From the NCBI GenBank assembly GCA_965219955.1, contig OZ244799.1, positions 2,432,001 to 2,496,000 on the forward strand: a DNA stretch of 64,000 bases, written 5' to 3'. Below are positions 2,198 through 4,120 of this stretch, piece after piece. Source of the stretch: a bacterium. Lineage in GTDB: Bacteria > UBA8248. The first letter of the stretch is position 1; the number at the start of each line of letters is the position of its first letter. The translations under genes were made by a program, and so were the position numbers. A model generated the notes under the pieces. It ran no database searches. It was not told the origin of the DNA and saw only the letters and a list, made by a program, of their open reading frames with translations.

Positions 2198-2330
2198 GGG
2201 GGTCCTCCTCATCCAAGGAGTTCAGAGTAGCCGCCATCTTGCCAGATGTGTTCCGGGGAGCGCAAAGAGCCGGTTCCGATTGAGGAAGGAGGGACTGCAG
2301 ACTGAGGAGGGAATCAATTCTCAGCGAAGA

Positions 2331-2464
2331 GGGGTTGTTGAAATAGCTTCGACAAACGAGGGTTTGACTCGGCCGGGGAGGGGGTTGTAGGGGCCGCATA
2401 TATGCGGCCCTTGCAGTGGGTGCGAAAAACCCAGGGTCGCATATATGTCGGACATATATGTCCG
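2331..2464. repeat. MITE-like left terminus plus GTAG-type REP palindromes (IS target)
   Basis: GGGGTTGTTGAAATA at 2331; GTAG+GGGCCGCATATATGCGGCCC at 2387-2410; interrupted palindrome at 2447-2464. Confidence 0.8.
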
Positions 2465-2519
2465 TATATGGACGCCCACGAGAATGCAAGCGGTTTTTGG
2501 GGAGGGTTCGGCGCAAAGC

Positions 2520-2700
2520 GGTTCGGCTCAGTCGTATATCCGGCCTCTTCGTTGCGGCGCTTTACTCTGGCCGCGGGCCCGTATGGAGATAGGTGGACCG
2601 GGTCCAAATCGACCTGGTGAGCTCGGTGGCTCTGGACATATATCTGGTTTTCCCGGTCCCGTCTCGATGACCGTTTGCCCTTACCCTTCCTCCGGCCTGC
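2520..2700 (-). ncRNA. putative bridge RNA / seekRNA of the IS110 element (ends approximate)
   Basis: segments at 2634-2643 and 2610-2615 match the target flanks; segments at 2583-2588 and 2533-2539 match the circle junction. Confidence 0.8.
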
Positions 2701-2736
2701 TCACATTCCTCCCGGCTCTATCCGTGCGCCCGCCGC

Positions 2737-3762
2737 TCAGGCGAGGGGCGCCGGCTCCCTGTAGACATCCTTGTTCCGCATCAGCGCCCACGCGATGCGC
2801 GCCATCCGGTTCGCCAGCGCCACCGCCACCACCTTCCTCGGCTTGCGCGCCAGCATCCGCGCCAGCCACGGACACGGCGGCTTCCGGCGACGCCCCGCCC
2901 AGCGTATCTCCGACATCGCGCCCGATATCAACAGACGCCTCACGTCGCGCTGGCCCATCTTCGACATGCCCCCCAGACGGGGCTTGCCCCCCGTGGAGTG
3001 CTGCCGGGGAACCAGACCCAGCCAGGCCGAGAAGTCACGGCCCCGACGGAAGTTCTCCACCGGCGGCGCGAACGCCCGGATCGCCGACGCCGTAATCGGA
3101 CCAACACCCGGGATGCTCATCAGACGCCGCGCCTCCTCGTCCGCGTATGCGCTCGCCCGGAGCCGTCCGGTCAACTCCCGGACCTTCGCATCGAGGCCGC
3201 CAATCTGGGCGAGCAGAATCCCGCCCAACTCGCGGACCTCCTCGGGCAGGCCCGATTCCGCTCCCCGAACCGCCGCCGCCAGCCGTGTGAGGCCCACGGG
3301 CCCTTGCCGCTCGACGACCCCGAACTCCGCCAGGTGGCTGCGCAGCGCGTTGCGCGCCTGCGTGCGCTGACCCACCAGCAAATCCCGCGTGCGGTACTCC
3401 ATCCCACACCCCTGCTGCGCTTCGCTCTTCACCGCCACGAAGCGCATCGTCGCCCGGGTGGCCGCCTCGCAAATGGCCTCCGCATCCGCCGCGTCGTTCT
3501 TGTGGCGCTTCACGTAGGGCTTCACGTAGACCGGCGGCATGAGCCGAACCTCATGGCCGAGCTTGCCGACCTCGCGCCCCCAGTAGTGCGCGCTCGCGCA
3601 CGCCTCCATCGCCACCACGCATCGAGGCTGCGACGACAGAAACTCCAGCACCTTCGCCCGCGTCAGCTTCTTGCGGAACGCGACCCGCCCGTCCGCCCAC
3701 GCGCCGTGGAGTTGAAAACTGTGTTTCGCCAAGTCGACCCCGATGATGTAGACTCCTCCCAT
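2737..3762 (-). CDS. IS110-family transposase/recombinase (341 aa)
   Basis: DEDD motifs GVDLAK, MEAC, KNDAADAEAI; C-terminal domain IPGVG, GLVPRQHSTGG; GGAAGGAG RBS before ATG 3762. Confidence 0.96.
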   Translation of the reverse strand: MGGVYIIGVDLAKHSFQLHGAWADGRVAFRKKLTRAKVLEFLSSQPRCVVAMEACASAHYWGREVGKLGHEVRLMPPVYVKPYVKRHKNDAADAEAICEAATRATMRFVAVKSEAQQGCGMEYRTRDLLVGQRTQARNALRSHLAEFGVVERQGPVGLTRLAAAVRGAESGLPEEVRELGGILLAQIGGLDAKVRELTGRLRASAYADEEARRLMSIPGVGPITASAIRAFAPPVENFRRGRDFSAWLGLVPRQHSTGGKPRLGGMSKMGQRDVRRLLISGAMSEIRWAGRRRKPPCPWLARMLARKPRKVVAVALANRMARIAWALMRNKDVYREPAPLA

Positions 3763-3839
3763 GGTCGTCTCCTTCCGGGCGGTGTGTGACGTCGTCTCGC
3801 CACATTCTAATCCGCCGGAAGGAGGCGTCCACCCCATCG

Positions 3840-4120
3840 ACCTACACACGAACAAATTTTCCCTCTCTGATTTTTTCAACAGCCCCTTGTCAGGGGGGGT
3901 AGGGGGGGGTGGTTTTCAAGGCGAGGGAGGCGTCCCCTCTACCCCTGAAAAAGTCAATCTCGGTCGGCTCCGACACCGGAATGACGAGCAAAGCCGCAAG
4001 GGCTGTAGGGACAGGCCTCCGTGCCTGTCCGAAACCCTGAAAAGGACAACCACGGAGGGTTGTCCCTACAACCGCAACACCGACCAACGGGGGGTTTTTC
4101 AACAACCCCGACAAGGGGGG
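3840..4120. repeat. palindromic repeat cluster with two MITE-like right termini
   Basis: TTTTTCAACAGCCCC at about 3872 and TTTTTCAACAACCCC at about 4095; GTAG-REP pair at about 4005-4069; CCCCTTGTCAGGGGG hairpin. Confidence 0.75.

Follow-up and report, generated by a model that had tools for sequence, protein, structure and literature searches.

An IS1111-group insertion sequence whose predicted bridge-RNA guides follow its palindromic targets and its own ends

How does an insertion sequence come to lie at one exact position within a repeated palindrome, and can the guides that might have placed it there be read from its own non-coding DNA? The question is raised by an element at positions 2465–3839 of a 64,000-nt stretch of bacterial DNA from contig OZ244799.1 (hereafter the window; coordinates without prefix are positions in it, and the transposase strand is the minus strand). 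A first-pass annotation, made from the letters alone, had described an IS1111-type element with a bridge RNA programmed against a palindrome of its host. Our analysis indicates that 2465–3839 is very probably an insertion sequence of the IS110 family, IS1111 group, that was active recently and has an RNA-guided transposase. The guide segments in its non-coding end vary together with the targets and with the element ends, both among relatives and among copies in the same genome. The element is intact but ordinary and adds to the known RNA-guided insertion sequences of the IS110/IS1111 type.

The boundaries are given by the insertion site. On the plus strand, the element is flanked by GTCGGACATATATGTCCG (2447–2464) and ACCTAC (3840–3845), and excision of 2465–3839 yields GTCGGACATATATGTCCGAC followed by CTAC, the perfect 20-bp palindrome that had been claimed, correct in letters and coordinates. 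CG is present at both junctions (2463–2464 and 3838–3839). With one core copy counted (3839–3838), the element measures 1375 bp and reads CG-ATGGGGTGGACGCC ... GGGCGTCCATATA on the minus strand, and all eight full copies in the genome have the same ends; the second core copy (2463–2464) is the right junction on the transposase strand. Beyond it lies the right target GACATATATGTCCGAC (2447–2462, minus strand), which is the remainder of the palindrome. The left target ...GTGTAGGT (3840–3851, minus strand) comprises the palindrome's GT and its GTAG foot. The host genome also contains this site in uninterrupted form, GTAGGT-CG-GACATATATGTCCGAC (G000:450387), which supports these boundaries. In addition, 2464 and 3846 are linked through ACCT in one contig (depth 5.1) from the RNA-library run X20; this empty site is 2 nt shorter than the form predicted from the window. 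The joint 2447>3841 in run X19 and the joints in run X5 were rejected as empty sites, as they match generic palindromes and not the window locus. The transposase-strand layout is CG-ATGGGG-TGGACGCC ... GGCGTCCA-TATA-CG, with 8-bp subterminal inverted repeats lying 6 nt (left, 3824–3831, minus strand) and 4 nt (right, 2469–2476, minus strand) inward from the core. The left end comprises 77 nt (3839–3763), the non-coding right end downstream of the transposase gene 272 nt (2736–2465).

The transposase gene (2737–3762, minus strand) encodes 341 amino acids plus stop; the protein has a RuvC-like DEDD domain, and its C-terminal domain includes GLVPRQHSTG, which corresponds to the GL-P----S/T-G motif of the IS1111 group. 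The N-terminal domain matches Pfam PF01548 (DEDD_Tnp_IS110; E 1.9e-13; residues 7–146) and the C-terminal domain PF02371 (Transposase_20; E 8.2e-23); the NCBIfam equivalog NF033542, ‘IS110 family RNA-guided transposase’, is matched with 302 bits against a cut-off of 140. In the PDB, the C-terminal domain matches two bridge recombinases of solved structure, ISCro4 (9t56; E 8.5e-10) and IS621 (8wt6; E 4.2e-9), and the D of GVDLAK, the E of AMEAC and the D..D of NDAADA line up with ISCro4 in an alignment that is weak. The database relatives closest to the transposase are unnamed (80–97% identity), and no close named element was found. The 8-bp inverted repeats, which have terminal extensions of 6 nt and 4 nt, fit the 7–17 bp given for the IS1111 group (8–13 bp in most of the 63 relatives introduced below), and the longer non-coding region is the one downstream of the gene (272 vs 77 nt). 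Insertion is site-specific with a shared 2-nt core, CG standing on both sides in six of the eight copies and the right-hand C being absent in two. Every defining feature of the IS1111 group, as set out in PMC11187229 and PMC11208160, that was open to test was found.

Four minus-strand segments of the non-coding end had been singled out as guides, namely ATATATGTCC (2643–2634), AGGTCG (2615–2610), CTCCAT (2588–2583) and ATATACG (2539–2533), and each is present at that place. As RNA, the right-target guide AUAUAUGUCC (2634–2643) is complementary to the core G plus GACATATAT of the top strand, and the left-target guide AGGUCG (2610–2615) is identical to the left target AGGT plus the core CG. The right-donor guide CUCCAU (2583–2588) pairs with ATGGGG of the left end through one G:U, and the left-donor guide AUAUACG (2533–2539) repeats the final 5 nt of the right end together with the core. 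The reported likeness of CTCCAT to the donor holds as far as this pairing goes; the segment omits the core, and it is conserved rather than visibly programmed.

Could such short matches arise by chance? When the non-coding end of the window copy was subjected to 5000 dinucleotide shuffles, the 10-nt match was never reached (0/5000), and neither were all four matches jointly (0/5000). A 6-nt match such as AGGTCG was reached by 11% of the shuffles and a 7-nt match such as ATATACG by 4.6%; for the left donor side, the test scored another exact match, the 6-nt TCCACC (50% of shuffles), and is uninformative on CTCCAT. Because of these results, three of the four segments are unconvincing on the window copy alone and become convincing only through comparison within the family. 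It may be argued from this that all four matches arose by chance, given a palindrome of AT repeats and an end rich in GC, and that the non-coding end serves only for protein binding or regulation, the more so as any sequence that matches one strand of a palindromic target must match the other, too. We consider this hardly credible in view of the 10-nt match and of three further observations, given below: the compensatory changes in the RNA structure, the fit of guides to their cognate sites, and the distribution of differences among genomic copies.

The structure was derived by comparison. A good alignment was obtained for the RNA region of 49 distinct relatives, and RNAalifold returned a closing helix, a basal helix of the target arm and two helices of the donor arm. 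The comparative structure holds 32 pairs in six helices with 92.5% of the cells paired, and 16 pairs show compensatory change, which speaks against chance matches. None of its five measures was reached by any of 500 shuffles, and sliding the 3' partners by 1–3 columns left only 22–45% of the cells paired. In the window, this core (model R1; 2518–2680, minus strand) consists of the helices P0 (2673–2670/2522–2519), P1 (2659–2652/2602–2595), P2 (2647–2644/2607–2604) and P4 (2579–2576/2545–2542) and the hairpins P3 (2632–2629/2622–2619) and P5 (2574–2570/2558–2554), all on the minus strand; a genome search with R1 identified 12 modules. The whole bridge/seek RNA region (2482–2708, minus strand) is bounded by an outer helix of GAAUGUGAGC (2708–2699) with GCUUGCAUUC (2491–2482), in which 76% of the cells are paired (34–58% when slid) and compensatory changes occur at three pairs. 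The minimum-energy fold of the single sequence, which is no better than that of shuffles and pairs part of the guides, was set aside in favour of the comparative structure.

The first-pass annotation had held that its reading would fall if the segments were paired in stems. In the 49 distinct relatives, all four are located in unpaired strands between conserved helices. The right- and left-target guides form the 5' and the 3' strand, respectively, of the target-binding internal loop between P2 and P3. The right-donor guide lies directly 5' and the left-donor guide directly 3' of P4, so placed that they flank an invariant GGCC/GGCC helix, which is uninformative as support for the structure.

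Relatives were collected by a scan using one genome per species, of which the best 80 of 562 loci were kept (56–81% protein identity). A script that pairs a left end (core followed by ATG...) with a right end returned pairs in 70 of 82 sequences, these being the 80 loci, the window element and its sister element B9 from the same genome; 12 sequences lacked an end pair. Seven of the 70 (L023, L026, L027, L029, L031, L070, L088) were rejected by eye on the ground that the family's ends were not present, and L055, which carries a second end-like tail, was omitted from the guide counts. The 63 remaining relatives are all built alike, with CG, TG or AG as core; that the core is identical on both sides was a requirement of the pairing script. 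A group in which the DNA match ends at element position 1311–1315 had seemed tail-less; this was refuted, the members being full elements with diverged tails. Of 22 further genomes of the genus that were searched, 16 hold matches to the element.

A common register emerged. The 3' strand of the target loop reads GC, 5 nt of left target, core, GA, and its 5' strand ends in the reverse complement of 4–7 nt of right target plus core; the donor 3' strand reads GGA, the last 4–5 nt of the right end, core. Guide statistics were computed on 40 distinct guide sets, with 44 elements having both flanks. At the cognate site, the longest exact match averages 5.88 nt on the left and 6.28 nt on the right, as compared to 3.07 nt and 3.13 nt at non-cognate sites with the same core (762 pairs). 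The left-donor guide 7-mer is identical to the element's own end plus core in 39 of the 40 sets, with 16 different 7-mers involved. This excess of cognate over non-cognate matching, and the agreement of the left-donor guides with their own ends, is not what chance resemblance would produce. The right-donor guide CUCCAU, by comparison, is nearly constant and leaves the core uncovered; its counterpart is ATGGAG in 13 relatives, where pairing is perfect, and ATGGGG in 12 that include the window element, where there is one G:U. The sister B9 (78% identical) illustrates the covariation within the host itself: its target is GGTTCAT-CG-TTCACGG and its end CCATACA, and its RNA carries UUCAUCG, UGAACG and AUACACG at the homologous places. 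The complement of the top strand lies 5' of the complement of the bottom strand, the same guide order that is published for IS1111-type seekRNAs (PMC11187229). In keeping with the earlier proposal that a change of guide should change specificity, natural variants follow their own targets and ends in the genome as well as in the 40 guide sets.

The 4.28-Mb genome harbours eight full copies (c1–c8) with 98–100% identity, the reading frame being open in all eight, and c1, c2 and c3 are identical. Besides B9, there are a relative truncated at its 5' end, a solo RNA module that has degenerated and a divergent fourth lineage. Seven copies reside in two palindrome families at GG(T/G)-CG-GACA or AGT-CG-GACA, and the eighth lies at AGGT-CG-ACAC inside a gene; no copy was found at a site unrelated to the guides, an outcome that the annotation had named as contrary to its proposal. 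The copy in the gene is c2 (G000:C1:1959372-1960746, locus L002). It interrupts a gene for a GTPase of the cobW/HypB/UreG family (PF02492; E 1e-61 for the upstream part), the frame of which is continuous only across the precise empty site; one added base breaks it.

These copies also bear on whether the element is a dead relic that was spread by segmental duplication or homologous recombination and not by guided transposition. Neither a circle nor a fresh insertion was observed, two copies have a damaged right junction with the core C missing, and one has a duplicated tail of 68 nt. On the other hand, the flanks differ at all eight loci beyond the short target, three copies are identical with all frames open, one interrupts a gene precisely, and an empty-site form of the window locus exists in another sample. 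A relic of this kind is accordingly very unlikely, and recent guided transposition remains our reading of the copies.

Among the near-identical copies c1–c6, only six positions of the 1375 bp vary. All are in the target-binding arm and five in the guide loops, a concentration that chance matches would leave unexplained. With respect to c1–c3, the sole change in c4 and c5 is ATA>GCG at element positions 1199–1201, inside the right-target guide. The right-target guide of c4–c7 thereby reads AUGCGUGUCC, the complement of GGACACGCA, which belongs to the second palindrome family GGGCGGACACGCAGGTCCGCCC, where c5, c6 and c7 are located. As judged from these sequences, ATA>GCG would retarget the right-target guide to the second palindrome type, the target form of which is TTGGG-CG-GACACGCAGG. 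Copy c6 has three further changes, a C>T that keeps a G:U in P1, a C>G beside the left-target guide and a T>G within it; the latter turns AGGUCG into AGGGCG, fitting its own site TTGGG-CG. Both lineages are present in a congener (G011), one with AUAUAUGUCC and AGGUCG, the other with AUGCGUGUCC and GGGCG.

The palindromes themselves were counted. There are 21 GACATATATGTC palindromes in the genome. Six have a CG core, and four of these (GT-CG-GACATATAT) are occupied; 15 have a CA core (GT-CA-GACATATAT), and none is (4/6 vs 0/15; Fisher p=0.0025). The second type has 13 sites, three occupied, eight free with a CG core, and two with AG. The 20-bp palindromes that fit the degenerate centre pattern of our script number 59, and those centred on ATATAT 58; their intergenic position was checked at the window locus only. 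The target had been called a host repetitive extragenic palindrome (REP). The repeated palindromes are indeed REP-like; a RAYT gene (PF01797) was not found, with no match in the single-contig genome of 4.28 Mb (completeness 94%), the control being positive in 6 of 14 named genomes.

Since seven of the eight copies lie in a palindrome arm at constant distance from its centre, the protein might recognise the palindrome mainly as a DNA structure, a hairpin or cruciform, with the RNA matches adding little. A preprint on ISPpu10 describes a target stem-loop that adds specificity beyond base pairing (10.64898/2026.03.19.712850). We consider structural recognition as the main determinant to be unlikely: c2 is inserted in coding sequence without a palindrome and yet has the full left-target match AGGT-CG, palindromes with a CA core differ in the second core base only and are never occupied (0/15), and in many relatives the guides covary with targets that are not palindromic. 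Target structure may help alongside the RNA, to which we continue to attribute the choice of site.

Further repeats surround the insertion. Two other palindromes of the ATATAT family lie beside it, GGGCCGCATATATGCGGCCC at 2391–2410 (20 genome copies) and GGGTCGCATATATG at 2434–2447 (23 copies of the full form), and congener elements that are 84–85% DNA-identical to the window element are programmed for this sort of palindrome (GGGT-CG-CATATATG). A hairpin repeat of about 67 nt, TGTAGGGACAGGCCTCCGTGCCTGTCC ... GGACAACCACGGAGGGTTGTCCCTACA, at 3996–4076 represents a second family of repeated palindromes, with a near copy downstream of c7. The only Rfam hits in 2200–4100 were weak, miRNA-like and on this hairpin repeat; they were set aside.

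How might the RNA be expressed? A promoter scan of 2380–3900 returned a single promoter-like site (shuffles give 0.1), with none in front of the RNA. It is a sigma-70-like TGGACG-16-TAGAAT (3804–3831, minus strand) in the left end, upstream of the transposase start, identified by consensus only. When the ends are joined in silico, another, TTGCAT-17-TACGAT, is created across the junction: the putative -35 box TTGCAT (2484–2489, minus strand) is completed only in a circle (TTGCAT, 17 nt, TA|CG|AT). In the same register, TTGCAT occurs in 23 of 49 distinct junctions and a -10 box ending in GAT in all 49, in 36 of them as yAyGAT. RNA-library contigs extend over the non-coding end (X18, 2433–2773; X20, 2434–2752; X19, 2438–2822 in pieces). 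These come from three libraries in two studies and cover little of the gene, the uncovered parts of which are uninformative; the cover of the non-coding end is a weak hint at RNA. For ISEc11, the account in PMC11187229 reports no promoter seen beyond the junction one and takes the short RNA as derived from a longer transcript.

According to the model that we propose, the 272-nt non-coding end would encode a bridge RNA (seekRNA) of roughly 160–230 nt, whose two arms are closed off by long-range helices. Within the target arm, AUAUAUGUCC would pair with the top strand right of the crossover and AGGUCG with the bottom strand left of it, the CG core included; in the donor arm, CUCCAU and AUAUACG would act likewise on the joined circle ends CCATATA-CG-ATGGGG. 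Recombination at the shared CG, carried out by the transposase as an RNA-guided DEDD/serine recombinase, would insert the circle at GGT-CG-GACA in one palindrome arm and leave CG on both sides. Expression would probably start at the circle-junction promoter and more weakly at the left-end promoter, giving a single transcript with subsequent trimming. Production of the RNA, its binding, the circular intermediate and the chemistry are supposed here by analogy with the published family. The features of bridge or seekRNAs that can be tested by computation were found; the ‘complete, natural programmable recombinase’ of the first-pass annotation is an inference.

Several observations weigh against this interpretation. 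For the window copy by itself, the 6- and 7-nt matches do not exceed chance. Folding of the single sequence does not stand out (z = -1.04; equalled by 31 of 200 shuffles), and Rfam 15 returned no relevant match in 2200–4100 at E up to 1, the existence of an IS1111 bridge RNA family in Rfam being unchecked. A circle junction was not among the joints listed for four RNA-library runs, and the library contigs report presence only, giving neither ends nor strand nor level, with carry-over of DNA possible. The right-target guide of the window element covers only the G of the core and, measured against 33 of 47 relatives, is shifted by 2 nt towards the hairpin (L016 and L017 were mis-scored in this comparison, owing to a longer hairpin). 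Two copies, c4 (694059–695433) and c8 (4205791–4207165), lack the right-hand core C and read CCATATA-G-GACATATAT. Finally, three copies fit their own guides poorly: the right guide matches only 4 nt in c2 and 5 nt in c4, and the left guide only 2 nt in c7.

With regard to the guide offset, the same one occurs in L022, in a minority register (3 of 47, one a poor match). This rules out the notion that the 2-nt shift is unique; its suspected role as the cause of the damaged junctions is unproven. The left junctions are exact in all eight copies, and the right-hand C must have been present before insertion at c4 and c8 because the regular palindrome form has it. A copy in G011 (L108, 98% identical) is irregular in another way, reading CCATATA-CG-CATATAT with GA missing after the core; its left side is cut off by the edge of the contig.

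The misfits of c2, c4 and c7 require either guides supplied in trans or recombination between copies. Copy c2, with its ATA guide, lies at GGAGGT-CG-ACACGCAGG; c4, with its GCG guide, lies in a GACATATAT palindrome where the left target is only GT; and the left target of c7, GGGG-CG, fits the guide of c6 and not its own. The simplest reading suggested by these copies is that RNAs of sister copies act in trans, the alternative being recombination between copies after insertion. Action in trans has been shown experimentally for IS621 (PMC11208160) and is stated for ISPpu10 (10.64898/2026.03.19.712850). Half-matched insertion has been described for IS621 (10.64898/2026.08.31.748434), and c2, matched in the left half, and c4, matched in the right half if guided by an ATA copy, look like the products of such events.

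Copy c7 has an additional peculiarity. After the element at this locus (G000:C1:4138591-4140035, loci L007 and L011) come CG, a duplicate of its last 68 nt, another CG and then the palindrome. The duplicate opens at the nucleotide that follows GATATA-CG, the left-donor guide sequence, which mimics the true end CCATATA-CG; recombination at this internal pseudo-end would explain the tail. A bolder overall reading of the copies, which we consider slightly less likely than not, is guide evolution in progress, with three guide sets and two palindrome families, combined with RNAs shared in trans and with the DNA of the left-donor guide serving as an internal pseudo-end.

Related elements elsewhere provided further observations. 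At locus L103 of a congener (G005:C139), a sibling element of 1369 bp is inserted within the bridge-RNA gene of a B9-like element, at AAAGGC-CG-GATACACG, and its guides GGUGUAUCCG and GAGGCCG match this site; the DNA just upstream of the left-donor-guide DNA is here the programmed target of the sibling. By its sequence, the sibling appears to have as its programmed target a conserved portion of the RNA gene in a related element. In the host genome, a degenerate bridge-RNA module without transposase gene (G000:C1:3812417-3812577, L012; 116 bits with R1) begins with the closing helix; immediately upstream of it is a tRNA-like sequence with a terminal CCA. The fourth, divergent lineage (G000:C1:2634528-2636000) has an AA core, GGAGAGG-AA-ATGGTATGGACG ... 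CGTCCATATA-AA-GGATGCCATG. Its RNA segments GAGGAA, AUGGCAUC and AUAUAAA fit its own site and end, and its transposase frame looks interrupted.

The value of these elements is that nature has supplied clean data: at least 40 distinct guide sets, with the cores CG, TG, AG and AA and known insertion sites, and one genome with three guide variants of the same recombinase beside occupied and free targets. These data provide matched test pairs for the guide positions that matter, for CG versus CA cores, for half-matched off-target insertion and for use in trans, in IS1111-type bridge recombinases, which are less studied than IS621.

The closest counterparts among known systems are ISEc11, ISPa11, ISKpn4 and ISPst6, which belong to the IS1111 group and have a 3' seekRNA (Siddiquee et al. 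2024, PMC11187229). As described there, they likewise have a transposase of 330–350 amino acids with GL-P----S/T-G, subterminal inverted repeats and a long non-coding region downstream, and ISPa11 also targets a REP. The same paper reports natural redirection between the relatives ISEc11 and ISXne4, the transposases of which are 72% identical, whereas redirection in the present case is between otherwise identical copies in one genome.

IS621 resembles it in the parts described by Durrant et al. (2024, PMC11208160): the RNA has two loops, with the left guide equal to the top strand and the right guide complementary to it, a 2-nt core is common to target and donor, the targets are REPs, and a promoter forms at the junction, as is predicted for the window element. 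Bridge RNAs are predicted there in the right end of 93% of IS1111 elements. IS621 differs in belonging to the IS110 group, in having its RNA in the left end and the guide order in the loops reversed, and in its CT core (PMC11208160). In contrast to IS621, the right-donor guide in the family of the window element omits the core, the right-target guide of the window element covers one core base, and the two arms of its RNA are enclosed by long-range helices (P0 and the outer helix). The IS621 bridge RNA is reportedly the subject of a further study by Hiraizumi et al. (2024).

ISPpu9 and ISPpu10 from Pseudomonas putida are IS110-family elements which are also inserted in REPs (PMC12288879; 10.64898/2026.03.19.712850). 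Several circular forms and solo RNA modules are described for ISPpu9 (PMC12288879), and trans action and a role of target structure for ISPpu10 (10.64898/2026.03.19.712850). Compared with these, host and sequences are different here, and the solo pieces are the 68-nt tail beside c7 and the degenerate module by a tRNA gene. The IS1111-group elements IS4321/IS5075 are said to insert at one position in a specific repeat of other mobile DNA (Partridge and Hall 2003). Publications of 2024 already covered RNA-guided choice of target and donor in IS110/IS1111, the targeting of REPs and natural redirection, and no new principle is added here; guide variants within one genome, copies apparently placed in trans and the putative pseudo-end are modest additions to what these systems have already revealed.

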